The translations under genes and the position numbers were made by a program. A DNA stretch of 60,816 bases from a virus (lineage: Duplodnaviria > Caudoviricetes), in the IMG/VR virus record IMGVR_UViG_3300020042_005302, positions 1 to 60,816 of that record. One strand, 5' to 3'. This document shows, in pieces, positions 1 to 11,926 of the stretch; position 1 is the stretch's first letter, and each line of letters starts with the position of its first letter. Under the pieces are notes generated by a model. The model made no database searches. It saw only the letters and a list, made by a program, of their open reading frames with translations, and was not told where the DNA came from.

Positions 1-129
1 CTCAATCCGACGATTCTGCAGAGCCTTAGCACCATGCCACAACAGCGCGTTGATGGTGCCGCTCTTTGGGCGCTCCACGCCGAGGACGATGCGGGCCTGC
101 GATGCTTCGATGATTGTCTGAATAGTCAT
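1..129 (-). CDS. Hypothetical protein, truncated by window edge (MTIQTIIEASQARIVLGVERPK...)
   Basis: ATG at 129 on - strand, AGGAG RBS (ctcct 136-140), frame open to position 1; not in ORF track. Confidence 0.6.
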   Translation of the reverse strand, partial: MTIQTIIEASQARIVLGVERPKSGTINALLWHGAKALQNRRIE

Positions 130-385
130 ATCTGACTCCTGTGTAATGCCTATTGTTATGGGGTAGGCTCCCCGTGTCCCTACTCAGTATGTCGAATAGG
201 GTATACCCCTCCGTGGAATCGGACTAAACACGGAACCGCCGGAACATGGCAAGCATGACACTTTGGTCGCACCAGCAGGGGTACCTAGACATAGCACACC
301 GAGAATGAACCCGGTGCACCGTCTAGCACAGGAGATTGACTATCTGGGAGTTTGGTGCATCTCCGGCAAAATGCACCACTATCTA

Positions 386-426
386 GGTAGAGCTGGTGTT
401 TACTAAGGTTCGATTCCTTAGCTACC
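386..426 (+). ncRNA. Mini tRNA-like element, copy 1 (no anticodon arm)
   Basis: GGTAG/CTACC stem, AGC-TGGT-GTT mini hairpin, CTAAGG-TTCGATT-CCTTAG T-arm; related copies at 666 and 2150. Confidence 0.75.
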
Positions 427-456
427 AATCCCAATAGGGAATGAAGGAGAAAGACT

Positions 457-666
457 ATGAATATCAAGGTTGTTATCAAAGCCGTTGCACAAGGAAAGTG
501 CGTCAGTGAGAACACGTACGAGACACCACGTGGCAAGTTTAGCCACAGTGGTCTTGTTGTGTTTGCTGACAGGCACAAGGTCAGTGTATTTAAGAACGCT
601 CAGCTCGTCTGGGCAACTACTGACGAAATCGAAATCAGGCAGGTGCGTTACGCACGTGCTAACTAG
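457..666 (+). CDS. Hypothetical early protein
   Basis: AAGGAG RBS, 69 aa; stop TAG overlaps the next RNA element. Confidence 0.8.
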   Translation: MNIKVVIKAVAQGKCVSENTYETPRGKFSHSGLVVFADRHKVSVFKNAQLVWATTDEIEIRQVRYARAN

Positions 667-706
667 GTAGGCTGGTGCCTTGTAGGGGTTCGATTCCCCT
701 ACCACC
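666..706 (+). ncRNA. Mini tRNA-like element, copy 2
   Basis: GGTAG/CCACC, (G)GC-TGGT-GC(C), TAGGGG-TTCGATT-CCCCTA; followed by hairpin TTCTCC-CGCAT-GGAGAA. Confidence 0.75.
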
Positions 707-742
707 TTTTCTCCCGCATGGAGAACTTAGGAGACAAAGACA

Positions 743-967
743 ATGTTTGAAGGATGGATAAAGGCAAATGGACTCGTTGCAAAGTGGTGGCCGTGTGAAC
801 ACGGTAACACAATGATCAGCGTTGAGAACGCTAATGGTTTCAACAAGCACAAGGTGTACGTTGTGAATCAAGCACAACTGCGAGAGAAGCTCGCGGATGC
901 AGCTCGCACTCTGCCTAATGGCAGTGATGCAGTACCCACGATCATGCAGATCGAAGGAGGCAAGTAA
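743..967 (+). CDS. Hypothetical early protein
   Basis: TAGGAG RBS; TAATG coupling to next ORF. Confidence 0.8.
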   Translation: MFEGWIKANGLVAKWWPCEHGNTMISVENANGFNKHKVYVVNQAQLREKLADAARTLPNGSDAVPTIMQIEGGK

Positions 968-1182
968 TGAGAAGAGACAGGACTAACATCGTATGGTTTG
1001 GCAACACCTACTTTTACAAGGATGAACTGTTCGTAACCGCATGCATCATCGCCATCGCTTTGATCGGTATGATCTGTGTACAGGTTGGTCGCAATATGGA
1101 CGCTGAGGTAGAGCGTCAACGACAGGTGGAAATGACTGAGATTGCCAACGATAAGGCAATCAACAAGGAGGTTACCAAATGA
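967..1182 (+). CDS. Small single-pass membrane protein
   Basis: Hydrophobic LFVTACIIAIALIGMICV; GGAGG RBS. Confidence 0.75.
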   Translation: MRRDRTNIVWFGNTYFYKDELFVTACIIAIALIGMICVQVGRNMDAEVERQRQVEMTEIANDKAINKEVTK

Positions 1183-1460
1183 CAGTCTACATTGCAGACT
1201 TTCGTAAGGGTGAGTGGAAGGTGTATGCCAACAAAGGGCGTACACCTATCGTAGTTCCTGACTGGGCAACACATGTCCAGTTCGGACAAGGGTTCGTCAC
1301 ATTTAAAGGTGGCGATCGTGTGGAAACTGAAGGTACAGCAGAGACCACTGGTTGGAATGGGTGGTCTCTTGTTCCTGCAATGAGCGCAGGAATTTCACGT
1401 CCCGGCACATGGGACAACACCATTGAGCGTTCGTACTTGATTGAAAGAGAAAGTAAATGA
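1179..1460 (+). CDS. Hypothetical early protein
   Basis: AGGAGG RBS, ATGA overlap. Confidence 0.8.
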   Translation: MTVYIADFRKGEWKVYANKGRTPIVVPDWATHVQFGQGFVTFKGGDRVETEGTAETTGWNGWSLVPAMSAGISRPGTWDNTIERSYLIERESK

Positions 1461-1570
1461 ACAGAAAAATAACACAAGAACAATATCAACGGGATCTCGT
1501 TGATATCTTCATCCACTTACTATGGATTCTTTTATTCATCATCGGAGTTACATCGGAGTTTTACCTATGA
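1457..1570 (+). CDS. 37-aa membrane peptide (MNRKITQEQYQRDLVDIFIHLLWILLFIIGVTSEFYL)
   Basis: ATGA overlaps at both ends; hydrophobic helix; below ORF-track cutoff. Confidence 0.6.
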   Translation: MNRKITQEQYQRDLVDIFIHLLWILLFIIGVTSEFYL

Positions 1571-2154
1571 ACATGACAATCAACAAGACTCGCATCCGCC
1601 CATCGATCTCGGTTAGCCCTGACCGGATACACGAAGAGGACGATTATGGGTGGAGGCATAAGACTAATCACTACGACATGATCGATCACGAGGTATGTAA
1701 CCTTATTAGAGATCACGTAATCTTATACAATGACGTGCAAGCTGCAATTAAAACCGGTAATACCGCTTTACCTGTATATGATAAACAAAGATTTACACGA
1801 GGTGGAAATTACTTCAAGTGTGCTTTCGTAGCAGGTCGCCTTGATCGTGACTATGGCAAAGCACTTTACTGGCTACGCAAAGCATGGGCATGCTTTGACT
1901 TTGATGGGCACCTCATCATAAAGGATGAGAGCAATGAAGACTCTTACATCTGGTTAACTACAGATATCATTGGCGATTACGACTGGAAGATAGCTGCTAC
2001 AGTTGTGACACGCAGCTTCCTTGGTAAGTCAGAAACACACACACAGATAGGTGTAATCAAAGAGGAACCAGATCTCACACCAGTAACGATACGAGTTGAA
2101 GCATTCAATCGTTACATCGGAATCGAACACGATAAATATCAAGCAATTAGGTAG
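1567..2154 (+). CDS. Hypothetical protein (start moved from 1522)
   Basis: GGAG RBS before ATG 1567 and ATGA overlap with the upstream peptide. Confidence 0.75.
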   Translation: MNMTINKTRIRPSISVSPDRIHEEDDYGWRHKTNHYDMIDHEVCNLIRDHVILYNDVQAAIKTGNTALPVYDKQRFTRGGNYFKCAFVAGRLDRDYGKALYWLRKAWACFDFDGHLIIKDESNEDSYIWLTTDIIGDYDWKIAATVVTRSFLGKSETHTQIGVIKEEPDLTPVTIRVEAFNRYIGIEHDKYQAIR

Positions 2155-2191
2155 AGCTGATGCTAGTCCGAGGTTTGATTCCCCGGCTACC
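2150..2191 (+). ncRNA. Mini tRNA-like element, copy 3
   Basis: GGTAG/CTACC, AGC-TGAT-GCT, CCGAGG-TTTGATT-CCCCGG; followed by hairpin TTCTCC-CTCGT-GGAGAA. Confidence 0.72.
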
Positions 2192-2253
2192 CTTTCTCCC
2201 TCGTGGAGAACATTGGCTGACAACCTACTGTCAATGAGAAAGCAACTATCGAT

Positions 2254-2466
2254 ATGAAGAAAGAGAAAGAAGCAATGGACAAGGCACGACTCGCTGTCCA
2301 TGAATACTATTGGGCACAAACTGACGATAATATACTCGTTCGCTGCCGCAAGCAAAGACAACTCGTCGAAGAGTTGGAACGTGCAGAGAAAGCATACAAA
2401 GAAGCGTACGCCAAGTCCGTACGTGACACATTTCTACAACTAGGAGAATGTTATGAAGCGGTATGA
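2254..2466 (+). CDS. Hypothetical coiled-coil protein
   Basis: 70 aa, charged helical pattern, in operon. Confidence 0.7.
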   Translation: MKKEKEAMDKARLAVHEYYWAQTDDNILVRCRKQRQLVEELERAEKAYKEAYAKSVRDTFLQLGECYEAV

Positions 2467-2869
2467 ATGTGGGTTTGGTAAGAAGCGTGTGGAGATCACA
2501 CTCAATGCAGGTTATGCACTCAAAGGTATTGATCCTGCAAGCATTGAACAGCAATGCAATGAAATATGTGAGGCACTACTGCACACATATGAATTCAGAC
2601 ACCTTGAGACAGATGCACAGTGGTCGTTCGAGACCAAGAAAGTAAATCTCTTTCAAGTAAAATTTACCTACGATACACACACAGGCAAGTACAGAGAGTC
2701 ACTCCAAGTACCTCCTATGGTGTACTTCCACGTTGCCTTGGAAGGTAGGGTAGCCCTACACACAGAAGGCAAGGCAAGCTGTCCAGATACAGCTTGTGGG
2801 CATCTCCGGCCAGCCCTCTACAAACATCTGCCGGATTATCTAATGATTACAGAATTCGAGGTTATCTAA
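2453..2869 (+). CDS. Hypothetical protein
   Basis: AGGAG RBS, 138 aa. Confidence 0.75.
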   Translation: MKRYECGFGKKRVEITLNAGYALKGIDPASIEQQCNEICEALLHTYEFRHLETDAQWSFETKKVNLFQVKFTYDTHTGKYRESLQVPPMVYFHVALEGRVALHTEGKASCPDTACGHLRPALYKHLPDYLMITEFEVI

Positions 2870-3183
2870 TGCAACCAGTTTACACAGCTAAAGAACTAGC
2901 ACAGATCGAACGCATCCGACAACGAGCAATCGCACGAGCAGAGCGAAAGCCCAAGCCTAAGCTTTTCCTTGAGCGACTCAATAAGTCTGAGTACAAGTAC
3001 CTTGTCGCAGCGGTTGGACGTGAACTCATATGCAAATCAACAGGCATCACTAGTGCACAGTCATACTCTAGTGATCCGTGTGCAGAGAAGATGCTTGTTG
3101 CGCTTGATGTCAGCCCACAAGAACACGGAGTCATTCTCAGGTTCGCCAAAATGGTAGCAGACAAGCAGTTCAAGCTGTCATAA
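2869..3183 (+). CDS. Hypothetical protein (start MQPVY)
   Basis: GAGG RBS and TAATG coupling at 2869. Confidence 0.7.
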   Translation: MQPVYTAKELAQIERIRQRAIARAERKPKPKLFLERLNKSEYKYLVAAVGRELICKSTGITSAQSYSSDPCAEKMLVALDVSPQEHGVILRFAKMVADKQFKLS

Positions 3184-3193
3184 GATGCCAAAT

Positions 3194-3310
3194 ATTGAGG
3201 GAGTCAAATTTTACACCCCCTCAATTATTACCGGGGAGGAGGGGTCAGATTTTACCCCCCTCATTACATTGAACAATAATCATATGAACAATATGATTGT
3301 TACGACAATC
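3194..3310. repeat. Iteron-like repeats plus AT-rich dyads, candidate replication origin
   Basis: Two related units GAGGG(A)GTCARATTTTAC(A)CCCCCTCA; TGAACAATA x2; dyads AATCATAT/ATATGATT and GATTGT/ACAATC. Confidence 0.55.
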
Positions 3311-3329
3311 CAGTTAGGAGTTAGTTGAT

Positions 3330-3554
3330 ATGGCTAAGAAGCAAGTAGAGAAAGATATTCGCATCGAATATCCATCAAGGAAGACCGTAGATGGCTCATA
3401 CAAAGCCAAGTGGGGAGTCTATGAGTACGTCACACTCGAAGACGGAACAGTAGACAGAAAATTCCTACAAGAGTTTGATTACAGAGACGCCGCTGTTGAG
3501 GCGTACCCAGATGCAACATTTAAACCAAGCGGATTCAAGAACACAGAACTATGA
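3330..3554 (+). CDS. Hypothetical protein
   Basis: TAGGAG RBS, 74 aa. Confidence 0.8.
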   Translation: MAKKQVEKDIRIEYPSRKTVDGSYKAKWGVYEYVTLEDGTVDRKFLQEFDYRDAAVEAYPDATFKPSGFKNTEL

Positions 3555-3865
3555 GACTACAAGTAGGCACAAAAGTACGAAACGTACGCAGACCAGACGT
3601 CATCGGCGTCATCACATCAATGAATGCACCCAACAATAAATGGATGGTAAGACCAGAAGACCTTAGAGTTATGGTCAGATATCCACGCATGACACTGTTG
3701 TCCAATGGCAAATGGAAAGGAGGTGAACTCGACGAACTACCAGCTGACCTTCTCCCTACTGGAGAAAAGATCCCGGAAGCATTTGAATCATATAAACGTA
3801 GCGGTGACGAAGGTGGCGTCGGCGCACGAATAGCAGCACAAAAAAGAAAGAGAACGCGGAAATGA
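3551..3865 (+). CDS. Hypothetical protein, possible SH3/KOW-like N-terminus
   Basis: LQVGTKVR...GVI motif; ATGA overlap. Confidence 0.65.
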   Translation: MRLQVGTKVRNVRRPDVIGVITSMNAPNNKWMVRPEDLRVMVRYPRMTLLSNGKWKGGELDELPADLLPTGEKIPEAFESYKRSGDEGGVGARIAAQKRKRTRK

Positions 3866-3975
3866 TTATAACTATATGCATCAGCATTGTATTCATATCC
3901 ATCCTGTTTCTACTAGGATGGTTTTTTAATGCAATAGATATCGCACAGGAAGAAATAGACATCAACAATGAGTAA
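3862..3975 (+). CDS. 37-aa membrane peptide (MIITICISIVFISILFLLGWFFNAIDIAQEEIDINNE)
   Basis: ATGA overlap, N-terminal TM helix, fills the gap between ORFs. Confidence 0.6.
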   Translation: MIITICISIVFISILFLLGWFFNAIDIAQEEIDINNE

Positions 3976-4357
3976 CATGATTACCCCACAGCAACTTGCA
4001 CAAGACGTACTGAGAGCCTATGAACGGCAAGACGGAATGATTACTAAGGTCGAGTTCCACAATGCCTCTAATTTCCGAAGCAAGCGACGCGTTAACATCG
4101 ATGGCACGATCGATATTTACTTGATTATGCATTATGAATTCAGGACTGCTGCCCAGTATCGCATCACACTACAAGTGTGGGATGACAAGTGGCAGATCAA
4201 GTCTGAAGGCTTTCTAGATGAAGTCAATGTTGAATACAACAACGATACACACAAGGCCCCAACAACGTTTATGATTCTCAAATCTTGGGCAGAATTGTTT
4301 GTAGATGAAGTACTTAGACTCAAGACAGTTGAAGGCCACGGGTTCATAGCCGACTAA
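3968..4357 (+). CDS. Hypothetical protein
   Basis: 129 aa ORF in operon. Confidence 0.75.
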   Translation: MSNMITPQQLAQDVLRAYERQDGMITKVEFHNASNFRSKRRVNIDGTIDIYLIMHYEFRTAAQYRITLQVWDDKWQIKSEGFLDEVNVEYNNDTHKAPTTFMILKSWAELFVDEVLRLKTVEGHGFIAD

Positions 4358-4363
4358 CACAAC

Positions 4364-4392
4364 GTGAGGGGTGCGTCTCACTAACAACGCAC
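4364..4392 (+). promoter_or_regulatory. Repeated H-type pseudoknot element, copy 1
   Basis: GTGAGG-G-GTGCG-TCTCAC-TAACAA-CGCAC, intergenic. Confidence 0.7.
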
Positions 4393-4405
4393 AGAAAGAG
4401 ACACA

Positions 4406-4612
4406 ATGACCAAAGACGATTACAACTGGATGATCGTGTGTGAATGGGTGGGTCAGATGCGAGCATTCTCAGCAGTGTTCAGCATGCCATTTGAACTACC
4501 AATGCCGTTCGAGCGCAAGTATCTTGACAAACTCGTTGCATTCATGAACGAACACAACAACAACGCAATCAGGGCACTCAATGCCACACGCACAAACACA
4601 GAGGAAAACTAA
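4406..4612 (+). CDS. Hypothetical protein
   Basis: AGAAAGAG RBS-like sequence, 68 aa. Confidence 0.7.
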   Translation: MTKDDYNWMIVCEWVGQMRAFSAVFSMPFELPMPFERKYLDKLVAFMNEHNNNAIRALNATRTNTEEN

Positions 4613-4938
4613 TGCCACCATTACATCATCATAAAAGAATCATTCTTAGCTTTGCATATCTTCATATCCACCCCGGTGGTGGATTGGAGAAAGCTATCTT
4701 GTTAGCTCCAAGCTTTCAACGATTTCTTGATCGCGAAGCACGTCAACACTGTGCTGAGTTACTAGACTTTATCGATGCTCATGTGCCACATGATGCACGT
4801 AACAGACAAGGTTTTGACCTTTGGCACAACACAGACCCTACAGAAGATGAGCGAATTGTTTTTAAACAATGGCTTGATTCAATTACGCCAATACCACGAC
4901 AGACAGAATGGGAGGTAATAGATACAAGTAATGGCTAG
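4612..4938 (+). CDS. Hypothetical protein
   Basis: GAGG RBS, TAATG coupling. Confidence 0.75.
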   Translation: MPPLHHHKRIILSFAYLHIHPGGGLEKAILLAPSFQRFLDREARQHCAELLDFIDAHVPHDARNRQGFDLWHNTDPTEDERIVFKQWLDSITPIPRQTEWEVIDTSNG

Positions 4939-5179
4939 ATACACTTACCACAATCAGATTTATGACTTTCAAGGCCAAGCAATTGGCCTTCCTGATGTTT
5001 ATACAACTGCATTAGCTGCACAAAAAATCGCTGGGCTTCACGTTTATTGTGATCCAACAATCATGCACATCAGGATCACACGATGTCTTGAACATACATA
5101 CGAGTTCAAACCGTATGCGATTGTTTACATGAACATTGTTACTGACAAACCTGTAAGTTCTAAAAGGAAAATATTTTAA
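4931..5179 (+). CDS. Hypothetical protein
   Basis: GGAGG upstream, overlapping ORF. Confidence 0.7.
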   Translation: MARYTYHNQIYDFQGQAIGLPDVYTTALAAQKIAGLHVYCDPTIMHIRITRCLEHTYEFKPYAIVYMNIVTDKPVSSKRKIF

Positions 5180-5434
5180 ATGAAATGCGATTGGGATGTT
5201 GTAATGGGTTCTTTAGTTCTTGAAGAACTACTCGAAGAGAACTTGATAACTAAAGATCATTACAACCATATGTGGGAAATCTTTAAAGATAAACAAGACG
5301 ATGTCAACTGGGTTTTACTTGACATGTCTGAGGTGTTATTGAATCTTGAACAAGATGATTGTGACAAGATCATTACCTACCTAAAAAAAGAGTGTAACCT
5401 CAAGAGTTTCACTGAAGCTAAGATCGCTATCTAA
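5180..5434 (+). CDS. Hypothetical acidic protein
   Basis: AAGGA RBS, abuts previous stop. Confidence 0.7.
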   Translation: MKCDWDVVMGSLVLEELLEENLITKDHYNHMWEIFKDKQDDVNWVLLDMSEVLLNLEQDDCDKIITYLKKECNLKSFTEAKIAI

Positions 5435-5441
5435 TGTTTGT

Positions 5442-5470
5442 GTGAGGGGTGCGCCTCACTAACAACGCAC
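5442..5470 (+). promoter_or_regulatory. Repeated H-type pseudoknot element, copy 2
   Basis: GTGAGG-G-GTGCG-CCTCAC-TAACAA-CGCAC (G-U becomes G-C in stem 1). Confidence 0.7.
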
Positions 5471-5486
5471 AGAAAGAAACATAATC

Positions 5487-5978
5487 ATGTCAGTTAAGCT
5501 TTACACACAGTATTTCCGCGACGCTCTTCTCGGTGTCCCTGCCAAAGTTGCAGACGGTACATTGAGTTCGTACGGTGGTTACTACACAACAGAGCACACA
5601 GATACCGTCGAACTCAACGGGCATTTCATCCAGATGGAATATAGTTTGCGGATGGATGTAGCCAATGGTCAAGAGAAAACACTACACCCTGTTCCTCTTG
5701 TACAGATTGAAGTCACAATGACACTGCGTCCTGAGAAGGATGTCCGTGCTACAGCTTCAATCATGAGTAAAGTAATCAAGGTTCAGTTGAACTCTGAGAC
5801 TCTTGAAGAGCAGATTGATGAAGCGATCCAGACACTAGAACGTGTCATCATTGACGTCAAGTTGCCAACTATAGCCTTTGACTTCTGGAAGTATGTTGCT
5901 ACTGCAATGCCAGACTTTGAGAAGCAGGTTAGCAAAGCGGTTGTAACTAACCATACTCGTCTGTCCTACAAGGACTAG
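5487..5978 (+). CDS. Hypothetical protein
   Basis: 163 aa, flanked by pseudoknot copies 2 and 3. Confidence 0.8.
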   Translation: MSVKLYTQYFRDALLGVPAKVADGTLSSYGGYYTTEHTDTVELNGHFIQMEYSLRMDVANGQEKTLHPVPLVQIEVTMTLRPEKDVRATASIMSKVIKVQLNSETLEEQIDEAIQTLERVIIDVKLPTIAFDFWKYVATAMPDFEKQVSKAVVTNHTRLSYKD

Positions 5979-5984
5979 TTAGAT

Positions 5985-6013
5985 GTGAGGGGTGCGTCTC
6001 ACTAACAACGCAC
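5985..6013 (+). promoter_or_regulatory. Repeated H-type pseudoknot element, copy 3
   Basis: Identical to copy 1. Confidence 0.7.
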
Positions 6014-6039
6014 AACTACACAATACAAAGGACAACACA

Positions 6040-6273
6040 ATGTATCGACAATGGTATGAACGCAGAATCAAACTTAATGATGGATATAAAATACATATTA
6101 ATTGCAAACAACTCGTTAGTTATGATGAGGACGAAAAGTTGTTTGAATGTGCATTAATCACACCAGATGAACATATAGATATGGATTCAATAACATACAA
6201 TTTAGACTTTCATCAAGTAGCAGAATATATCAACAAAGCTAAGGAAAAACATAATGACGATAGGAACAGCTGA
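6040..6273 (+). CDS. Hypothetical protein (start MYRQW)
   Basis: AAAGGA RBS before ATG 6040; track start 5992 falls inside the repeat. Confidence 0.7.
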   Translation: MYRQWYERRIKLNDGYKIHINCKQLVSYDEDEKLFECALITPDEHIDMDSITYNLDFHQVAEYINKAKEKHNDDRNS

Positions 6274-6502
6274 ATATATTAGGCATCACGTATATCGTGA
6301 TTGTCCTAACTACTCGTTTCCACCATGTAAGTATGGACACACGATGTGTTCATGCACAGATGAGGCCGGTGGCCCATGCTCAGATGAGTTAGAAGCAGAG
6401 AACGATCAACGAGTTGATGTGTTTTATGCAGCTCGCATTATTGATGCTATTTACGTCAAGAACAACGATAACTACGAACTACTTATATGGGATGAAGAAT
6501 AA
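6254..6502 (+). CDS. Cys-rich hypothetical protein
   Basis: CPN..PCKYGH.MCSC...GPC; AAGGA RBS. Confidence 0.7.
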   Translation: MTIGTAEYIRHHVYRDCPNYSFPPCKYGHTMCSCTDEAGGPCSDELEAENDQRVDVFYAARIIDAIYVKNNDNYELLIWDEE

Positions 6503-6747
6503 TGGAACACAAGATTTGTTTAGTTAGCGTCGATATGTTTAATGCGCCCGGAATGCTACGTTGGGCGCGTCACTTCTACCGCATGCCGTCATGCTCCAAG
6601 CAGGACAAGAAGTATTTCTTGGGTGTAATGGAAGCATGGATACCTGACAAGAAGACAGCCAAGTATTGCCTCGAATGTCCAGACGATGTCATTGAATGGG
6701 ACTACGAAGAACGGTCTGCGACAATCACAGTAAAGGTAACTAAATAA
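6502..6747 (+). CDS. Hypothetical protein
   Basis: TAATG coupling. Confidence 0.7.
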   Translation: MEHKICLVSVDMFNAPGMLRWARHFYRMPSCSKQDKKYFLGVMEAWIPDKKTAKYCLECPDDVIEWDYEERSATITVKVTK

Positions 6748-7146
6748 ATGACTGACAACATAATGATAGAAGCATGGGATGAGATTATGGCTGATTCACA
6801 AGAAGCCGAAGAATGTATCGTATCCATGTATAGTGTCGAGCGTTATTACGGTGGCCCAGAGGAAGGAGGTTGGTGGGGCAACCTGTTCATACTCAGGAAA
6901 TATGTAAGATGTAGTAATCGTGATGCAGCTGAACAACTACGACGGAAACTTCAAGAACGATGTGAGGAACTAAACAAAGAAGAACAACAACGAGATAGCG
7001 AAGACTGTTTGCGTCACTGCGAACGTGCTTGGTCGCGAGGTGAGGATGTAGATGACTACGGATATGACGGACCAAGTACATATCATGTACTCATTGAAAA
7101 GTTTCCCGGACAGAATCAACAAACAGAACGATCACACTACGAATAA
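6748..7146 (+). CDS. Conserved phage early protein (YGGPEEGGWW motif)
   Basis: Motif recurrent in phage hypothetical proteins, recalled rather than searched. Confidence 0.75.
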   Translation: MTDNIMIEAWDEIMADSQEAEECIVSMYSVERYYGGPEEGGWWGNLFILRKYVRCSNRDAAEQLRRKLQERCEELNKEEQQRDSEDCLRHCERAWSRGEDVDDYGYDGPSTYHVLIEKFPGQNQQTERSHYE

Positions 7147-7158
7147 AGGATAACAATT

Positions 7159-7386
7159 ATGTATTACGATTGGGACGAAGACGATGTTCCTTCTGATGAA
7201 GACGAGATGATTGAACAAATGTTTGAGCATCCACACGGTGCTTCAGCGTTGCGCAGAGCAACTAAAAGTAATCCACGCAATCTGCCGTGCCCGACATGTG
7301 GCGAGCCTAACAGGCTTACACCAATGGATGTATGGAAAGGATATCAATGCGACGAATGCGCTAATCAAGCAGAACGAGGCTGGTAA
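7159..7386 (+). CDS. Zn-ribbon protein
   Basis: CPTC...CDEC; AAGGA RBS. Confidence 0.75.
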   Translation: MYYDWDEDDVPSDEDEMIEQMFEHPHGASALRRATKSNPRNLPCPTCGEPNRLTPMDVWKGYQCDECANQAERGW

Positions 7387-7907
7387 TGCCACTAAAAAAA
7401 CTGACACCTGAACAAACAGCATCAATACGGCATCAAGCAAATAATGGCGTAAGTGTATTAGCACTTGCAGCTAAATACAACATATCTACACAACACATAT
7501 ACAGAATCAAAAGCAACGAAAGACGAGATAGAAAGAAAAAACAAATGAGTACATATAACGGCTGGACAAATTACGCAACATGGTTATTTTATTTACATCA
7601 CCAAGAAAATGTAGAGCACTGGTATTACGATGAGCCAGCAAGCACACGCAAAGACCTTGATGAAACACATCTTCAAAATTATTTTGAAGAGATGTATAGC
7701 GAACTAATGCATGATGTTGCGAACACTTACATCACTGATGTTTTCAATAACGAGTTGCGTGATGTGAATTGGAGGGAGGTAATGAACACACTACCAAAAG
7801 ATAACGAATCGTCTGACGATGGATATGACGCCAACTGGACAGAAGAAGGCGCAATAACAAACTACCTAGATCATGTAGCAGAAAATAAAGAAAGAGAAAG
7901 AAACTAA
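7386..7907 (+). CDS. HTH domain fused to YNGWTNY-type acidic domain
   Basis: N-terminal GVSVLALAAKYNISTQHIYRI HTH; second domain begins MSTYNGWTNYATW. Confidence 0.65.
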   Translation: MPLKKLTPEQTASIRHQANNGVSVLALAAKYNISTQHIYRIKSNERRDRKKKQMSTYNGWTNYATWLFYLHHQENVEHWYYDEPASTRKDLDETHLQNYFEEMYSELMHDVANTYITDVFNNELRDVNWREVMNTLPKDNESSDDGYDANWTEEGAITNYLDHVAENKERERN

Positions 7908-8800
7908 TGACCGCACAAGAATACCTCGCTAAGTTTGGGCTGGATGCAAATCCGGCCCTTTTTACCAATGTACGTAACGGCAAAGACATGAAGCCAAAGT
8001 ACAACTCATACTGTATCTATGATGGAGTTAGTCAACTAGACAGACGATCTCGCATTATATGCGTCATATCTAACTGTGAGACCAACAATAATGACTGGAA
8101 CATCAAGACTGGTGACATGATCCAGTCTTACATCATCATGCGTAATGTGCATCCACAGGCTGCCATCGACAAGCTCCTTGATGGCTGTATCTGTGGTAAC
8201 TGCACACACCGCAAGCGACGTAAGCGCAACAATCGCACAGGCAAAATCAAAGATGTTCGTACGTGCTATGTCAATATCGGCAAGGGTACATCAGCTGTAT
8301 GGGAATCATTCCGAAAAGGCAACATACCAATTGTGTCCAGTACTGTTGCCTCTACCATTCAGGTAGTTGCTGGTAAGAAACTACGCATGGGTACATACGG
8401 TGACCCAGTTGCCGTACCATTCCCAATCTGGGGTGACATGCTACGCTATGAGCTTGGTCATACTGGCTATACACATCAATGGCGTATGCCAATAGCCAAG
8501 CCGTTTCGTGGTGTCCTTCAGGCATCATGTGACTCATATGTTGATCGATGGGAAGCCAAGGAAGCTGGCTGGGGCACATTCCTAGTCCGTCCACATGACG
8601 GCTACATTGACAAGCGTCACACAGCTTATGCTCGTGGCGCCAAACAATGCCCAAGTGATCCATTCATCAACGAGATGCGAGCAATGCGCAATATGCTACC
8701 AATGCATACCACATGCGACACTTGTCCTGCATCTCTACGCTGTGATGGCGATAGCGATATTGTCATCCGTGCCCACGGTTCAGCTGCGCTGTGGGTTTAA
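7907..8800 (+). CDS. Cys-rich putative Fe-S / radical-SAM-like protein (gp88-like phage family)
   Basis: CICGNC...CYV, LRMGTYGD, GYTHQW, ASCD, C-terminal CDTC..C and AHG. Confidence 0.6.
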   Translation: MTAQEYLAKFGLDANPALFTNVRNGKDMKPKYNSYCIYDGVSQLDRRSRIICVISNCETNNNDWNIKTGDMIQSYIIMRNVHPQAAIDKLLDGCICGNCTHRKRRKRNNRTGKIKDVRTCYVNIGKGTSAVWESFRKGNIPIVSSTVASTIQVVAGKKLRMGTYGDPVAVPFPIWGDMLRYELGHTGYTHQWRMPIAKPFRGVLQASCDSYVDRWEAKEAGWGTFLVRPHDGYIDKRHTAYARGAKQCPSDPFINEMRAMRNMLPMHTTCDTCPASLRCDGDSDIVIRAHGSAALWV

Positions 8801-8821
8801 TTAAACACAAGGTAAATAAAC

Positions 8822-9235
8822 ATGTTTTATTCAATATGCGAAGAAGACGAATGGTCCCAAGATTGTTGGGACCAAGCCGGTCACTACACAAAGGATGGCG
8901 AGTGTCACTCGCCATCTAACGGTGTGTACTTGGCCTACTACATAGCTCGACGTATCTTTGCAGACATCAGCGTTAGATATACAGACGAAGGTGTAAAGCG
9001 ATTCATTCAGGAAGAATGCGACAAAGGGAAATGCCGTGTTGATTCTGATGAGATTGATACATTCTGCAAAGCTATACAAGATGCGTATGATGCTGAGACC
9101 GTAGAAGAATTCAATGAGGCGCTATGGGATTTTGTTCATGATAGCGACTTCAGTGAGTGGAATGACATATTTTGTGGGAATGACCTTGCTTATGCATGCA
9201 AGTTAGAAGAACCAGAAGGGTGGCCAGTGCCATGA
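8822..9235 (+). CDS. Acidic hypothetical protein
   Basis: AAGGT RBS, 137 aa, D/E-rich. Confidence 0.75.
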   Translation: MFYSICEEDEWSQDCWDQAGHYTKDGECHSPSNGVYLAYYIARRIFADISVRYTDEGVKRFIQEECDKGKCRVDSDEIDTFCKAIQDAYDAETVEEFNEALWDFVHDSDFSEWNDIFCGNDLAYACKLEEPEGWPVP

Positions 9236-9525
9236 CAGTAGAAGAGATTGATGAAGACGAAAATAATTTCATGAATGAGTTGCGATGGCTGCGGGAGAAA
9301 TACCCGCAGTTCTACGTTGAAGCATGGGGTCCATATGACTTTGCACTGCAACTTAATAATGATGCATATATACATGGAGATGCACTTGCAGAGGCTGCAG
9401 CAGACAATTGGGATGAATGGGCAGGTGTAGTCGAAATATTACACGACACATTTGATGCTCATGTTGGTACAAACTGGGATCGCATACGCGGAGCAATAGA
9501 GGAGATTAAAAGAGATGCAAAATGA
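9232..9525 (+). CDS. Acidic hypothetical protein (start MTVEE)
   Basis: ATGA overlap. Confidence 0.7.
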   Translation: MTVEEIDEDENNFMNELRWLREKYPQFYVEAWGPYDFALQLNNDAYIHGDALAEAAADNWDEWAGVVEILHDTFDAHVGTNWDRIRGAIEEIKRDAK

Positions 9526-9844
9526 TTACACACCTGAACACATGACGTTCACCATTCAATCCATCAACACAGAGTGGTGGTACATGATGATGATGGACAT
9601 GATTCAGTACAACGATTGGGTCAAGAATGTGCGTACAGTTGAACATACAGATACAAACTGGGTGCTTGAGATTATTGATGATGAATGTGAAACACATCTC
9701 ATATCAGATCTAAACCTATTGGAACATTTACGTACGTGCTGGGCAAAAGGCGATCGTATGTTTGTAGAACCACAGAACATTGACTACGACTTTATTGACT
9801 GCATAGTACAAGAACTATGTTTTGGTGAGTTAGTTTACGGATAA
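9515..9844 (+). CDS. Acidic hypothetical protein
   Basis: AGGAG RBS; C-terminus D.IVQ..CFGELVYG. Confidence 0.75.
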   Translation: MQNDYTPEHMTFTIQSINTEWWYMMMMDMIQYNDWVKNVRTVEHTDTNWVLEIIDDECETHLISDLNLLEHLRTCWAKGDRMFVEPQNIDYDFIDCIVQELCFGELVYG

Positions 9845-9855
9845 GGAATAACACA

Positions 9856-10356
9856 ATGCCTAATTGGTGCGATAACACATTAACAGTATCTGGTGACAAT
9901 ATCGATGACGTGAAGAAATGGGTAGCAGAAAACACAAAGAAAAACGACTATGGAATTGACTGCGTAGACTTCAATGGCTCAGTGCCAATGCCAGACGAGG
10001 AAGATGGTAACGAATGGTACAAGTGGTCTATGACTAACTGGGGTACTAAGTGGAATGCTTGTTATTGTTGTGTGCTAGAAGGCAACGACAATGAAGCACG
10101 TTATAATTTTGACACCGCATGGGGGCCACCCGGTGCATGGTTCATTACTATGAGTGCTAAGTATCCCAAGCTTAACTTTGTAATGCACTATTCAGAACCG
10201 GGCATGTGTTTTGCTGGCACTATGTCTAGACAAGATGGCTACTTTGATGACGTGTATCGCGAAAACGAAGACATTACTGATGATGATAAAGAAAATATGG
10301 GCTGGACACTATGCGAGGCATGCGGTGGATGGGAGCAAGAATGCATGTGTGATTGA
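9856..10356 (+). CDS. DUF1281/YubB (Api92-like) ferredoxin-like fold protein
   Basis: MPNWCDN, NWGTKW, FDTAWGPP and EPGM.FAG signature motifs. Confidence 0.85.
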   Translation: MPNWCDNTLTVSGDNIDDVKKWVAENTKKNDYGIDCVDFNGSVPMPDEEDGNEWYKWSMTNWGTKWNACYCCVLEGNDNEARYNFDTAWGPPGAWFITMSAKYPKLNFVMHYSEPGMCFAGTMSRQDGYFDDVYRENEDITDDDKENMGWTLCEACGGWEQECMCD

Positions 10357-10372
10357 TTACCTACGGTATAAT
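10356..10372 (+). promoter_or_regulatory. Phage promoter/operator ATTACCTACGGTATAAT
   Basis: Perfect TATAAT; identical copies at 56903-56919 and 58839-58855 on - strand. Confidence 0.75.
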
Positions 10373-10393
10373 CAGTTACGTAATTAATCAATA

Positions 10394-10435
10394 TTTGTGG
10401 AGTCTGAATTACAGTTTAGGCTCCACAAACTTTTT
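10394..10435 (+). terminator. Intrinsic terminator-like hairpin
   Basis: TTTGTGGAG...CTCCACAAA stem followed by CTTTTT. Confidence 0.6.
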
Positions 10436-10448
10436 ACTAAGGAGATTC

Positions 10449-10856
10449 ATGTTAGAAGAATTATCAAATTTAGTTAACGCAATGTCTGTCACTAGCGAGT
10501 ACCGCAATGGATGGAAACAAATTGAAACAACCATCGCAACAAACGGTATTGTCACACTGAACTGGCCAAAGCTTAAGCTAAAGATCATTTCATTCAAGAT
10601 GCCTGTCAATTGGAATGGATCAACAGAGGATGCGGAGTCAATCGTTACAATTGATACTCTGTATTACACTGATAGCACAGAGTCGGAAATCGCGTGGCGC
10701 ACCAACAGTAATCATGTTCAGCATGATTGGGAAACACTGCAGCGAGTTCGTGTGTCAGATATCGTTGATCGATTTTTTGATGGCTCTTGGACACCACCAT
10801 GGAAATGTGGATTCTGTTCAAGCCGTCATGCTGGCAAATTGAAACCTAAGTTCTGA
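10449..10856 (+). CDS. Hypothetical protein (start MLEEL)
   Basis: AAGGAG RBS before ATG 10449; C-terminal CGFC...H. Confidence 0.7.
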   Translation: MLEELSNLVNAMSVTSEYRNGWKQIETTIATNGIVTLNWPKLKLKIISFKMPVNWNGSTEDAESIVTIDTLYYTDSTESEIAWRTNSNHVQHDWETLQRVRVSDIVDRFFDGSWTPPWKCGFCSSRHAGKLKPKF

Positions 10857-11464
10857 TGCCATTGCCAACATCCAGAGTTAATCGGCCCGTGCTCTACGAA
10901 CTAGAGTACGGGTCAGAGTCCTTGTATGTACGCAGTGGTGAGACAGCTGTTGCTATATACAAAGAATGGGTGGCACATGCCATCAGCGCAAAAGACACAT
11001 GTGACCTGACACTGTACGCTTTGTTGAGTCCAACACCATCAAAGGTTTACACTGTTACACAGATAACACTATTGCTAAATGGAGGATGGGAGTCAGCGAA
11101 AATGCAGCACTACTCAATACGTGATGGCGAGATAGTTGATGTTTACATTGGCAAACGCGCACACAGATATGAGTATGGTCATTACAAATATAGAAAAACA
11201 AGGAGGATGAACAAAGACTACGCAGAGGTTTTCACTCTGTTCTGTGCAGATAAAAACCTTGTAGAGATGTGTATAAGATCTCCTAACTACGGCATCTTTT
11301 ACGGTGCTCTTACATTGGAGAATCAAACAGATGAAATTCAAAGAATCAAAAAGTACTCACGGCAGCTATACAATTTGTGTAATAGGCGTGGCAGATATAT
11401 TGAATCCAAAGCCCCTCTACAAATGCGGGTGCGAAAGTTGCCAGCTGGCATACGGAATCAATAG
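10856..11464 (+). CDS. Hypothetical protein
   Basis: TGATG coupling, 202 aa. Confidence 0.7.
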   Translation: MPLPTSRVNRPVLYELEYGSESLYVRSGETAVAIYKEWVAHAISAKDTCDLTLYALLSPTPSKVYTVTQITLLLNGGWESAKMQHYSIRDGEIVDVYIGKRAHRYEYGHYKYRKTRRMNKDYAEVFTLFCADKNLVEMCIRSPNYGIFYGALTLENQTDEIQRIKKYSRQLYNLCNRRGRYIESKAPLQMRVRKLPAGIRNQ

Positions 11465-11521
11465 ATCAATAGCCGCACTTGCAAGTTTAGCGATAAAGGT
11501 CTTTGGGTATCTATTAATTAT

Positions 11522-11926
11522 ATGGCTGTACAACTAAGCGAGAAGGACTTGCAGAAGCAAGTCTTCACTGTGTTGACTAACCTTGGTTATCATGTTTTTG
11601 AAACAGGGAAAGCAAGATCACAACAAAAGTGCAAGGCATGTGGCGCCAAGCAATACGCAACAGGATGGCAGGGCAACTCACCCGGCCTTCCTGATTTGTA
11701 CATCCACTCTAAACAATGGCCACGTAGCGTAGCTATTGCCATTGAACTAAAGACAGAGAAAGGAGCAATAAGAGATACACAGAAAACAATTAATGAACTA
11801 GGATACACACACATTTGCAGATCGATAGGGTCTGTATTGAGAGCAATACTCACCATCGAGATGCACATGAACAACGAATCAAAGGTTGATCAACTTAAAA
11901 AGGTTATTGATATAAATGGATTTTGA
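11522..11926 (+). CDS. VRR-NUC family nuclease / Holliday junction resolvase with Zn knuckle
   Basis: SEKDLQ...GLPDL...IELKTEKG..Q PD-(D/E)xK motif; CKAC. Confidence 0.85.
   Translation: MAVQLSEKDLQKQVFTVLTNLGYHVFETGKARSQQKCKACGAKQYATGWQGNSPGLPDLYIHSKQWPRSVAIAIELKTEKGAIRDTQKTINELGYTHICRSIGSVLRAILTIEMHMNNESKVDQLKKVIDINGF

Follow-up and report, generated by a model that had tools for sequence, protein, structure and literature searches.

Mini-tRNAs and H-type pseudoknots in the early-gene spacers of an uncultured phage

Two classes of structured RNA, three mini-tRNAs and three pseudoknots, lie on the coding strand in the intercistronic gaps of the early region of an uncultured phage with a ~61 kb genome and a P22-like portal. 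The whole stretch of 60,816 nucleotides is here termed the window. We give an even chance to the explanation that these are two independent kinds of cis-acting structured RNA located within the spacers of two early transcription units, the mini-tRNAs being t-element-like and the pseudoknots post-transcriptional elements. The preliminary description, which had proposed a single early operon processed through both classes as one system, is partly supported.

Early gene packing and gaps

As had been proposed, most + strand early ORFs abut or overlap. Gaps, defined as at least 40 nt between ORFs, were counted over 380-6040. The gaps and the features associated with them are as follows.

130-456, gap containing mini-tRNA 1
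335-384, + strand, conserved leader block preceding the first of the early genes, starting with a TTGAC(T/A) word
386-427, + strand, mini-tRNA 1 (model R1, 60.9 bits; covariation)
429-440, + strand, hairpin 2 of mini-tRNA 1, 4 bp, followed by the SD (444-449) and ATG 457
667-742, gap containing mini-tRNA 2
666-707, + strand, mini-tRNA 2 (R1, 60.3 bits), T arm 683-688/696-701
709-725, + strand, hairpin 2 of mini-tRNA 2, 6 bp with a 5-nt loop, followed by the SD and ATG 743
1461-1521, possible gap, counted only if the 37-aa ORF 1457-1570 is not real
1482-1507, + strand, plain 10-bp inverted repeat or hairpin in that possible gap, seen in the sequence
2155-2253, gap containing mini-tRNA 3
2150-2192, + strand, mini-tRNA 3 (R1, 58.5 bits), T arm 2168-2173/2181-2186
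2194-2210, + strand, hairpin 2 of mini-tRNA 3, 6 bp with a 5-nt loop; ATG 2254
3184-3329, gap containing the 'ori-like' block
3185-3330, + strand, 'ori-like' block (promoter scan; 5-genome alignment; fold z = -3.6)
4358-4405, 5435-5486 and 5979-6039, gaps with a single pseudoknot in each
4364-4392, + strand, pseudoknot 1, stem 1 4364-4368/4377-4381, stem 2 4371-4375/4388-4392
5442-5470, + strand, pseudoknot 2, 7 nt past the stop of ORF 5180-5434
5985-6013, + strand, pseudoknot 3, 6 nt past the stop of ORF 5487-5978 and 26 nt short of ATG 6040

The placement of the three mini-tRNAs before the 3.2-kb block and of the three pseudoknots after it agrees with the preliminary description. Its statement that the real gaps are filled by one class or the other holds for six gaps; however, the possible gap at 1461-1521, which it did not mention, contains a plain hairpin that belongs to neither class and is listed on the - strand by a terminator-like scan.

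None of the six elements is called by ARAGORN or by Rfam 15. The sole ARAGORN call in the window is a tRNA-Leu(TAA) at 58751-58831, which is also the sole Rfam match at gathering thresholds. At E<=10, Rfam yields six weak matches over 130-6300, and only one of these touches an element (tmRNA T-arm positions at 684-700 in mini-tRNA 2, 14.4 bits compared with a gathering score of 47). The identification of both classes as structured RNAs of the mRNA strand is upheld by their conservation in related IMG/VR phages and by RNA-type covariation. The mini-tRNA covaries strongly, and the covariation of the pseudoknot, although limited, is consistent.

Structure and covariation of the mini-tRNAs

The window contains exactly three tRNA-like elements that lack an anticodon arm. 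In each, the acceptor-like stem has 5 bp, the D-like hairpin 3 bp and the T arm, which carries a canonical T loop, 6 bp. The UGGU loop of the D-like hairpin can provide both G's needed for a tRNA elbow. Acceptor and T arm together stack to 11 bp, compared with 12 in tRNA. The element is followed by 1-4 nt, a small hairpin and the ribosome-binding site of the next gene. In mini-tRNA 1, the acceptor-like stem (386-390/422-426) encloses the D-like hairpin (391-400, UGGU loop) and the T arm (403-408/416-421, loop 409-415), and is followed by a discriminator-like base at 427; the minimum-free-energy fold recovers this modeled structure. The G1 of mini-tRNA 2 overlaps the TAG stop (664-666) of ORF 457-666, and acceptor positions 3-5 of mini-tRNA 3 are the TAG stop (2152-2154) of ORF 1522-2154. 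Two of the three elements carry one A-C mismatch, located in the acceptor 3' strand (702-706) of mini-tRNA 2 and in the T arm of mini-tRNA 3. The latter also differs from the others in having A rather than G in the D-like loop and U rather than C in the T loop.

The leader block that precedes mini-tRNA 1 contains an 8-bp hairpin at 353-378 and no convincing -10 after the TTGAC(T/A) word. Its ~50 nt are identical in the window, L049 and L034, and it also occurs in G005, where it is joined directly to the ribosome-binding site with no mini-tRNA.

The T-loop 11-mer occurs in three exact + strand copies in the window; allowing up to one mismatch, 5 copies are found where 1.31 are expected, a number reached in 0 of 100 shuffles. 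With filters off, a covariance model that has the three window elements among its 26 training sequences scores them at 58.5-60.9 bits and the next best site at 9.5 bits. Searching 47 sources with the model yielded 35 matches, 32 of them distinct. Pairing is observed in 91.3% of cells compared with 76.6% in shuffles, and falls to 38.5-56.8% when the 3' partners are slid. Changes on both sides occur in 12 of the 14 pairs, and 0 of 500 shuffles reach any of five measures. The T arm is 99% paired and covaries in 4 of its 6 pairs. Because the G-U pairs occur on the + strand only, the mRNA-sense strand is the one that folds. Of 96 distinct elements, only mini-tRNA 3 and its ortholog L049:7721 carry the G-to-A change in the D loop or the C-to-U change in the T loop, and each has both; this coupling fits a tRNA elbow pair, as a single event only. 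The +3 base after the acceptor is T in 26/26 elements, and a local hairpin begins no more than 5 nt past the acceptor end in 19 of the 22 window-clade elements. On a provisional choice of frame, an open frame of at least 40 codons ends in or at the acceptor 5' strand in 13 of 28 elements.

Mini-tRNAs in other viruses and archaea

Elements with this layout are also found in ~100 other viral contigs, as well as in cyanophage Syn5 and certain rRNA spacers. A set of 95 further viral loci contains 76 mini-tRNA matches, only one of which overlaps an ARAGORN call, and in 44 of 51 decisive cases the mini-tRNA is sense to the downstream gene. A haloarchaeal mobile-region operon repeats the order stop, mini-tRNA, hairpin and start in three successive gaps. 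In a cyanopodovirus relative, the mini-tRNA is preceded at a distance of ~200 nt by a Glutamine-II riboswitch.

Some of these loci suggest genes for trans-acting stable small RNAs, which would lie between ORFs simply because they fit there and could be decoys or competitors for host enzymes or defense proteins that recognize the acceptor/T-arm half of tRNA. The viral contig L282 has five mini-tRNAs in 900 nt with almost no ORFs between them, a cluster that looks more like small-RNA genes than punctuation, and in L308 there is an identical pair whose stems have the canonical 7/5 lengths. The acceptor sequences vary freely between copies, and the element is facultative for a given gene, being absent at the homolog of ORF 2254-2466 in G005 and at that of ORF 457-666 in L026. 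We consider a small-RNA role unlikely, because in the window clade and in the haloarchaeal locus the elements are confined to junctions of co-directional ORFs and are always followed by a hairpin and ribosome-binding site, and they have neither an anticodon loop nor an encoded CCA. Such RNAs would also require excision by RNase P and RNase Z, and hence would extend the cis-acting explanation rather than exclude it.

Structure and conservation of the pseudoknots

The second class is a 29-nt H-type pseudoknot, present in three copies in the window. Both of its stems are 5 bp long; loop 1 has 2 nt, the junction a single nt and loop 3, which is A-rich, 6 nt (in pseudoknot 1 the two loops are 4369-4370 and 4382-4387). 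It is followed by an A/C-rich leader with a weak SD. The motif begins 5-8 nt past the preceding stop, as is the case in 80 of 86 instances, and the next start codon follows 8-26 nt after it. Pseudoknot 1 is located 6 nt past the stop of ORF 3968-4357 and 13 nt short of ATG 4406; pseudoknot 2 is 16 nt short of ATG 5487, the start of a conserved 163-aa ORF; and pseudoknot 3 forms the junction with variable downstream genes. The 30-nt pseudoknot word is found three times in the window where 0 are expected.

All 24 distinct 29-mers are 100% paired. The covarying pairs are the outer pair of each stem, with G:C/C:G in one and G:C/A:U/G:U in the other; the variable stem 2 position has 16 A:U, 0 A:C, 17 G:U and 76 G:C (Fisher p = 2e-10, phylogeny ignored). 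Copies retrieved with stem 1 unconstrained add C:G and A:U at one more of its positions, and the stem 2 3' strand, which was outside the scan pattern, is present in 110 of the 139 pattern matches. The remaining 8 of 10 pairs never vary, partly since the retrieval patterns fixed them, and structural support is therefore limited to three positions. The pseudoknot is an unclassified motif with nearly invariant stems, which could also reflect homogenization by recombination. An AT-rich phage group carries the same core between unrelated flanks.

The motif precedes the 163-aa gene in all eight relatives that hold it, down to 31-33% protein identity. This pairing, together with the unstructured A/C-rich leader and weak SD, would fit a translational operator for a phage protein on the model of the T4 gene 32 leader, in which binding along an unstructured leader across the ribosome-binding site is nucleated by a pseudoknot (PMC3014915, for the precedent), the 163-aa product being the candidate. 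However, no homolog of this product was found by tblastn or profile search in 25 AT-rich-group loci (190,642 bases, partial contigs), and the motif precedes unrelated genes as well. The AlphaFold model of the protein is confident (pLDDT 84.9), but structure searches gave no fold match above background. An operator of this kind is decidedly improbable. A small ligand-sensing aptamer or riboswitch, similar in size and topology to preQ1-I, would account for the compact H-type fold, the A-rich loop 3 and the near-invariant nucleotides in two very different phage groups. It is very unlikely, given that no Rfam family matches even at E<=10, the SD and start lie outside the fold, varied ORFan genes lie downstream, and invariant stems are unusual for riboswitches.

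The least probable explanation, to which we give very little weight, is a role at the DNA level, with the elements serving as promoters, as operators or as hairpin promoters of a virion RNA polymerase; alternatively, the mini-tRNAs would be functionless, either attP remnants or tRNA genes in decay. In favor of this, the repeats lie between genes of an early region, the genome contains a virion-size ORF of 3733 aa with no assigned function, and phages often carry tRNA fragments as attP (PMC8707807). G-U-type pairs on the + strand, with A-C never seen, argue against duplex DNA sites and template-strand hairpins, and a real promoter-like block is located elsewhere, at 3.2 kb. Fragments at attP reproduce the 3' portion of a tRNA alone, but the mini-tRNAs have a complementary 5' strand that covaries, and no integrase was seen near the mini-tRNAs. 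Decay is at odds with three copies with different stems in one genome and with the same architecture in archaea.

Two transcription units and separable modules

In the 3.2-kb block, two ~22-bp repeats are followed by a 16-nt word that does not vary and then by a promoter of the sigma-70 type (-35 at 3269-3274, -10 at 3292-3297), which overlaps a palindrome. In the alignment, 5/5 genomes retain a TTGAA(C/T/G) -35, a 17-nt spacer and a TAnnnT -10. The conserved hexamers and spacing behind the repeats therefore mark a regulated promoter that opens a second transcription unit, in place of the origin-like region and single early operon previously proposed, and place the mini-tRNAs and pseudoknots in different transcription units. 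A classic intrinsic terminator is located at 13770-13805. The phage appears to depend on the host RNA polymerase; a search for a T7-like RNA polymerase gave no signal, as did the control for the same search.

Nor are the two classes linked as one system. Complete relatives contain pseudoknots in 5/5 cases and mini-tRNAs in 3/5, with 0 to 4 mini-tRNAs per genome. None of 81 further pseudoknot-pattern loci contains a mini-tRNA, and only 1 of 95 further mini-tRNA loci contains a pseudoknot. The mini-tRNA and the pseudoknot are separable modules, an outcome that the preliminary description had itself named as counting against its proposal.

T4-type phages carry promoter/stem-loop repeats, and both elements might likewise be mainly cassette-boundary linkers for recombination and early-gene swaps, with RNA structure secondary. 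The same upstream gene end (...SYKD*) and pseudoknot are followed by at least five different downstream N-termini, and the window has an extra ORF (4406-4612) directly after pseudoknot 1 relative to 5 of 7 relatives. The varying mini-tRNA number and the near-invariance of the pseudoknot, which fits homogenization, point the same way. However, the mini-tRNAs of a single genome remain paired although their stem sequences differ, which indicates selection on structure rather than on sequence identity. The pseudoknot variants follow RNA pairing rules, including G-U and never A-C, and the core recurs between unrelated flanks in the AT-rich group. A linker role as the main function is distinctly unlikely.

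Proposed processing of the early transcripts

In the cis-acting explanation that we favor, the mini-tRNA would be cleaved by host RNase P at its 5' edge and, just past the discriminator-like base, by RNase Z or, where the host relies on it, RNase E; the two cuts would split the polycistronic early RNA into units. The downstream mRNA would then begin with the hairpin or carry it close to the new 5' end, and this would slow 5'-end-dependent decay; the ~42-nt mini-tRNA may be released. Since the acceptor 5' strand contains or touches the upstream stop, the RNase P cut would strip the upstream message of its stop codon. This counts against the explanation, as do the 11-bp stack, the A-C mismatches in two of the window copies, the absence of the element at some homologous genes and the L282 cluster. 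The pseudoknot would be a post-transcriptional element recognized by a conserved factor, and may serve as a decay barrier or insulate the downstream initiation region. The literature searches found no description of such tRNA-mimic processing in phages, in agreement with the preliminary description, which had regarded processing by tRNA mimicry and pseudoknots as undescribed there.

Comparison with known systems

Animal mitochondrial transcripts are punctuated by tRNAs and the T7 early transcript is divided at RNase III sites. In both, as proposed here, polycistronic RNA is divided at structured signals recognized by host or organelle endonucleases. The mitochondrial signals are functional tRNAs, whereas the mini-tRNAs cannot decode, and the T7 sites are long double-stranded RNase III hairpins, of which there are none in these gaps.

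In the T4/T2 gene 32 mRNA, described as very stable, an unstructured leader and ribosome-binding site are likewise preceded by an H-type pseudoknot, whose two stems are coaxial (PMC3014915). Here, in contrast, two to three pseudoknots per genome precede different genes with no known binding protein, and the nearly invariant core is common to unrelated phages. The tRNA-like domain of tmRNA resembles the mini-tRNA in combining a T arm and acceptor with a D-loop substitute and no anticodon arm, and marine phages have two-piece tmRNA annotations or calls adjoining glutamine riboswitches (PMC9004378). The mini-tRNAs differ from tmRNA in having no tag reading frame and an unpermuted order, and ARAGORN made no tmRNA calls in the window or in the 9 loci tested. 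Candidate structured RNAs from IMG/VR, including tRNA-like candidates and cis-regulatory candidates upstream of genes, are cataloged in PMC10690425, and the mini-tRNA or pseudoknot may already be among them; the tRNA-like candidates in the portion of that paper available overlap ARAGORN calls, unlike the mini-tRNAs.

The mini-tRNAs fit a known kind of RNA, the t-elements, which give tRNA mimicry a direct precedent as a signal for mRNA processing. They serve as processing signals in mitochondrial mRNAs of plants and in the 5S rRNA precursor of Haloferax volcanii, and RNase P and tRNase Z cleave them in Haloferax and in Arabidopsis mitochondria (PMC4326828, PMC1920247); PMC3296008 also reports them as RNase P/RNase Z substrates. 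Plant t-elements were found using the word GGTTCRANYCC (PMC1920247), which the mini-tRNA T loop fits. The mini-tRNAs differ in lacking an anticodon arm, in their 5/6-bp stems (in the window clade), in their fixed downstream hairpin and in lying serially between small ORFs of phage and mobile-element operons, where cleavage is predicted. In common with them, t-elements have a non-canonical tRNA-like fold with a conserved T arm at mRNA or rRNA ends, and the plant nad6 and ccmC messages end within the reading frame at a t-element, which parallels the phage stops in the acceptor stem.

Organization of the early region

The early region of the window contains two classes of conserved, sense-strand RNA structure that occupy fixed intercistronic positions: anticodon-arm-less, tRNA-like elements (mini-tRNAs) and 29-nt H-type pseudoknots. 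The window is about 97% complete according to CheckV. Small genes run on the + strand from about 457 to 16,928, and the rest of the window forms a − strand block with an endolysin gene, a 3733-aa ORF and the genes of the major head protein, a P22-like portal, terminase and ThyX. The replication genes are O-like and DnaB-like. A PHROG search of 20 early ORFs left 19 without a match, and the remaining ORF matched families of unknown function. A blastn search of positions 1–8000 against named phages returned no close relative, and the best named relatives of the portal protein are actinophage portals with 20–25% identity. Judged by these comparisons, no cultured phage is close to the window.

Features of the window discussed in the text
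335–384: leader block, 50 nt identical in several relatives; starts with TTGAC(T/A) and contains an 8-bp hairpin at 353–378
386–427, 666–707 and 2150–2192 (+): mini-tRNAs 1, 2 and 3
3185–3330: conserved block with a sigma-70-type promoter, −35 at 3269–3274 and −10 at 3292–3297
4364–4392, 5442–5470 and 5985–6013 (+): pseudoknots 1, 2 and 3
5487–5978: 163-aa ORF, preceded by a pseudoknot
13770–13805: intrinsic terminator, 9-bp GC-rich stem and T run, between ORFs 13088–13717 and 13819–14424
17693–28894 (−): 3733-aa ORF, adjoining the endolysin gene
58098–58831 (−): ThyX gene and tRNA-Leu(TAA), directly adjoining each other

The early + strand ORFs are packed, abutting or overlapping, as the preliminary description had reported. 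Its further statement that each real gap in 380–6040 holds one of the elements agrees with the sequence, except that a possible gap at 1461–1521, with a plain hairpin inside, had been overlooked. The tRNA T-loop 11-mer does occur in three exact copies (407, 687 and 2172) and the 30-nt pseudoknot word in three (4364, 5442 and 5985). Both counts exceed those of every shuffle, and the observation of the two classes is real.

The sigma-70-type promoter together with the classic intrinsic terminator at 13770–13805 points to transcription by the host RNA polymerase. A six-frame search of the window for phage RNA polymerase (PF00940) gave no match but carries little weight, the control genomes being likewise silent. 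The terminator is strong and is present in a relative (G004) too. The leader block revealed no convincing −10 element, so that no promoter could be assigned to the first unit. The 3733-aa ORF has neither a PHROG match nor a PDB sequence match, and its Pfam match is sub-threshold; its product could be a virion polymerase or some other virion protein that is ejected. The tRNA-Leu(TAA) is the sole canonical tRNA of the phage, and a related locus (L049) has the same tRNA.

Structure and covariation of the mini-tRNAs

Relatives of the mini-tRNAs were collected by pattern scans of IMG/VR, and a covariance model, R1, was built from 26 aligned copies. Applied to the window, R1 identifies exactly three copies (58.5–60.9 bits, all three being training members), followed by a next best hit of 9.5 bits. 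Altogether it finds 35 copies in 47 sources. MAFFT was unreliable for the 5′ strand of the element and a model-based alignment was used instead. In that alignment of 32 distinct sequences, which is fitted to the model and hence biased towards the structure, 91.3% of cells pair versus 76.6% in shuffles. Changes on both sides occur in 12 of the 14 pairs, and none of 500 shuffles reaches any of the five measures. When the partners are slid, pairing falls to 38.5–56.8%.

Three parts make up the fold: an acceptor-like stem of 5 bp; at the place of the tRNA D arm, a 3-bp hairpin whose loop is UGGU; and a 6-bp T arm with a canonical loop. The 2–4 linker bases between the D-like hairpin and the T arm take the place of the anticodon arm. 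The T arm is 99% paired and four of its six pairs covary. All five pairs of the acceptor-like stem change on both sides, with 80.6% of cells pairing, a value lowered in part by one-base alignment slips in copies that lack one A. The length of this stem is 5 bp within the window clade and 6–7 bp outside it. The G-U pairs indicate that the element folds on the mRNA-sense strand. Among 96 distinct elements, only copy 3 of the window and its ortholog carry a U at the T-loop position whose tRNA counterpart pairs with the D-loop G, and the same two alone carry a D-loop A at the matching position. Such a joint change, a single event, is what a tRNA elbow pair would predict.

The surroundings of the element are also regular. 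The acceptor is followed by one variable base and a U-rich stretch, the base at +3 being T in 26/26. In 19 of the 22 window-clade copies a small hairpin of 4–7 bp (hairpin 2) begins no more than 5 nt downstream, and 3′ of it lie a Shine–Dalgarno (SD) sequence and then an ATG 15–62 nt away. In copies 2 and 3 the upstream ORF ends at the element, its stop codon touching or falling within the 5′ strand of the acceptor. An open frame of at least 40 codons, in a script-chosen frame, ends at that strand in 13/28 elements.

Class membership of the mini-tRNAs

The mini-tRNA has a conserved T arm with the word GGTTCRANYCC (three exact matches in the window) and is closed by an acceptor-like stem stacked on this arm, which are structural hallmarks of a t-element. 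On sequence grounds it has features that are read by tRNA-processing enzymes. It is not a canonical tRNA because it has no anticodon arm and neither ARAGORN nor the Rfam tRNA model calls any of the three copies. ARAGORN likewise finds no tmRNA or two-piece tmRNA; the only Rfam contact at E ≤ 10 is a tmRNA T arm in one copy, over 17 positions, with 14.4 bits versus a gathering threshold of 47. The tRNA-like module of bacterial Y RNA (YrlA) gave no Rfam match at E ≤ 10. RNase III sites of the T7 type were rejected upon folding of seven spacers, as the stems in the mini-tRNA and pseudoknot gaps do not exceed 7 bp.

Distribution of the mini-tRNAs

A further viral search examined 95 loci seeded by the D-loop/T-loop pattern, and its results refer to such pattern-seeded loci only. 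It yielded 76 model matches at E ≤ 0.001, one of which overlaps an ARAGORN call. Of 96 distinct elements, 12 lay too close to the end of their locus. Where the comparison was decisive, the mini-tRNA shares its strand with the downstream gene in 44 of 51 cases and with the upstream gene in 38 of 52. Some loci contain several copies. Three mini-tRNAs spaced about 600 nt apart, with small ORFs between them, form an array in L323, and L308 has two identical copies. An IMG/VR contig with a GC content of 34% (L282) gives five R1 matches between 1943 and 2849 on the − strand. These five elements, within 900 nt, have acceptor stems of 6–7 bp and almost no ORFs between them. The array is reminiscent of a tRNA gene cluster whose tRNAs lack anticodons.

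In Synechococcus phage Syn5 (NC_009531, 19754–20017) a mini-tRNA occupies the 263-nt gap between the scaffold and major capsid genes, and in T7-like cyanophages the long leader of the major capsid gene carries a mini-tRNA of this kind. A Glutamine-II riboswitch is located about 200 nt upstream of the mini-tRNA in a Syn5-related contig (L038:3580–3877). This cyanophage pairing may relate to the marine-phage annotations given as "two-piece tmRNA plus glutamine riboswitch" in the retrieved text of PMC9004378.

A loose pattern scan of cellular genome contigs produced at least 24 model matches from 80 loci. In a contig of the haloarchaeon Halopenitus persicus (L077, 1608–2718, − strand), three mini-tRNA-like elements occupy one gap after another in an operon of small co-directional ORFs, which lies beside resolvase, TFB-like and MazE-like genes; a hairpin and then a start codon follow each element. 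Among the matches listed, single copies between ORFs occur in contigs of Haloplanus, Methanolobus, Microcoleus and Treponema. At least five Prolixibacteraceae genomes (L063:3968–4016; L064, L070, L076 and L082) have a mini-tRNA-like element in the 16S–23S spacer, between tRNA-Ala and the 23S gene, where it is likely an rRNA processing signal. To judge from these model matches, the range of mini-tRNAs is much wider than the window alone would suggest.

The pseudoknot and the 163-aa ORF

Two IMG/VR scans were performed with non-overlapping halves of the pseudoknot motif, and each recovered the other half. The scan with the 3′ half retrieved the whole motif in 28 of 30 loci, and the scan with the 5′ half was accompanied by the stem 2 partner within 0–9 nt in 110 of 139 instances. 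The window-clade group (84 instances) has a 6-nt loop 3. An AT-rich group without an SD sequence (25 instances) has loops of 3–4 nt and the same core. MAFFT was unreliable for pseudoknots that differ in loop 3 length, and an equal-length subset was used. Its 24 distinct 29-mers pair at 100%, with covariation at the outer pair of each stem; the remaining 8 of 10 pairs are invariant, partly fixed by the scans, so that this support is limited. The outer pair of stem 2 is A:U in 16 instances, A:C in 0, G:U in 17 and G:C in 76, and copies retrieved with stem 1 left free contribute C:G and A:U at one further position of that stem. The motif, with two stems and covariation in each, belongs to the H-type pseudoknots. 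It starts 5–8 nt after the upstream stop codon in 80 of 86 instances and ends 8–26 nt before the ATG, with an A/C-rich leader of two recurring types downstream.

Comparison with Rfam 15 at E ≤ 10 gave no match for any copy to the preQ1-I/II/III, SAM-II/V, fluoride or guanidine-III riboswitches or to others in that release. Stimulation of readthrough or frameshifting was rejected, as there is no slippery site, an in-frame stop falls within loop 3 after pseudoknot 1, and only one of the three downstream ORFs is in frame. A boxA/nut-like site and a T7/T3-like promoter core, considered on the grounds of resemblance, were dropped too; the pairing rules seen in the RNA oppose a duplex DNA site. Neither version of the pseudoknot was found in named phages, where only chance-level matches of 20–22 nt occurred, and it is absent from all 401 Bacteroidota genomes sampled. 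As an orphan motif the pseudoknot is new, and it is under strong selection.

The pseudoknot precedes the 163-aa ORF in all eight of the relatives with this gene and is kept while the adjacent protein drops to 31–33% identity. The AlphaFold model of this protein is confident (pLDDT 84.9) and shows a four-stranded sheet with helices. Pfam gives a sub-threshold S30AE match only (E = 0.001, 20.2 bits versus a cut-off of 23.7). Structure searches found no solved fold above background: Foldseek against the PDB returned nothing at E ≤ 0.001, the best Z score of the wide VIA-align search was 6.1, under the stated background of 7–8, and the ESM Atlas gave no usable match. In the AT-rich pseudoknot group, the contig parts searched contain no homolog of the protein. 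An autoregulatory operator of the T4 gene 32 type is a candidate role, suggested by the association with the 163-aa ORF.

A conserved promoter separates the two classes

Five complete relatives share the same order of leader block, mini-tRNA zone, conserved block and pseudoknot zone. The conserved block at 3185–3330, formerly called ori-like, instead aligns as a sigma-70-type promoter in all five genomes, with two repeats of about 22 bp, a −35 element TTGAA(C/T/G), a 17-nt spacer and a TAnnnT −10 element. A 16-nt word ahead of the promoter is invariant, and in the window the promoter overlaps a perfect palindrome. The first repeat is not a hairpin in one genome, which favours DNA sites over RNA structure. 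The block is probably the regulated start of a second early, or middle, transcription unit, as read from this alignment. A promoter scan listed no sigma-70 promoter inside either element class. The conserved promoter between the zones places the two classes in different transcription units and thus contradicts the earlier proposal of one early operon.

A check of the relatives for co-occurrence bore out the pseudoknots, present in all five complete genomes with 2–3 copies each, but mini-tRNAs in only three (four copies, one copy and one weak match). For the same gene, the mini-tRNA can be present in one genome and absent in another. No mini-tRNA was found in 81 further pseudoknot-pattern loci (673,488 bases), and of the 95 further mini-tRNA loci only one carries a pseudoknot variant. 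In that locus (L331:9839–10110), which belongs to another phage lineage, the variant follows the mini-tRNA on the same strand after about 190 nt, and two base pairs of its first stem are changed on both sides. Eight cyanopodovirus-type loci and a Syn5 stretch (L259) showed no pseudoknot in the parts searched. The classes co-occur in the clade yet are separable, and a single system made up of both finds no support.

Proposed roles and comparison with known processing signals

Both classes are very probably functional RNA structures. In the proposed mechanism, RNase P and RNase Z (or RNase E) would cut at the mini-tRNA, and the cuts would leave the downstream messages capped by hairpin 2; the pseudoknot would act as a decay barrier, an insulator of the initiation region or a factor-binding site. 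By analogy, cutting of the mini-tRNAs by tRNA-processing enzymes is slightly favoured, whereas any particular role of the pseudoknot is tentative and rather doubtful. The combined statement, mini-tRNA processing signals plus pseudoknot control elements, stands at about even chances. Stop codons inside the acceptor stem, an acceptor plus T stack of 11 bp and the facultative presence of the mini-tRNA all speak against simple punctuation, and the L282 array without ORFs suggests that the small RNA may itself matter.

A wider reading in two parts is possible, and unlikely to hold jointly. Its first part is that the mini-tRNAs would form an unrecognised family common to viruses and mobile elements of bacteria and archaea, that universal tRNA-processing enzymes would cut polycistronic early RNAs at them, and that the released mini-tRNAs may have a role of their own, for instance as decoys for host factors that grip the acceptor/T-arm half of tRNA. 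In the second, the 29-nt pseudoknot of unrelated phage groups, its stems nearly invariant, would be the ligand of a host machine that is universally conserved, with the ribosome, RNA polymerase or a ribonuclease as candidates. If this joint reading were true, the pseudoknot would be a new class of phage control element. It offers a compact target for structure probing and a partner search. Apart from T4 and T7, little is understood of how phages with dozens of tiny, packed early genes control the level and lifetime of each message. If the mini-tRNAs are indeed substrates of RNase P and RNase Z, phages would exploit an essential and universal RNA-processing pair. Cutting could explain the appearance of the design in phages of bacteria, in the capsid-gene leader of a cyanophage, in mobile DNA of haloarchaea and in some rRNA spacers, and would provide a simple annotation signature that current tRNA and Rfam tools miss.

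In the literature as partly retrieved, no paper on t-element-like elements in phages was found, and the IMG/VR catalogue of PMC10690425 may contain them. The mini-tRNA T arm carries the same word as plant mitochondrial t-elements, which were found with the GGTTCRANYCC word; according to the retrieved text of PMC1920247, RNase Z and RNase P generate the 5′ and 3′ termini of mRNAs at these elements, and some of the termini fall inside reading frames. In Haloferax, a t-element upstream of the 5S rRNA is cut by tRNase Z, and a designed RNA was freed by flanking t-elements through RNase P and tRNase Z, as described in the retrieved parts of PMC4326828 and PMC3296008. With this Haloferax precedent (PMC4326828, same parts), mini-tRNAs that are cut would allow host-independent splitting of operon transcripts in synthetic biology. 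By analogy with these systems, the mini-tRNAs are a new phage and mobile-element form of a known kind of processing signal.
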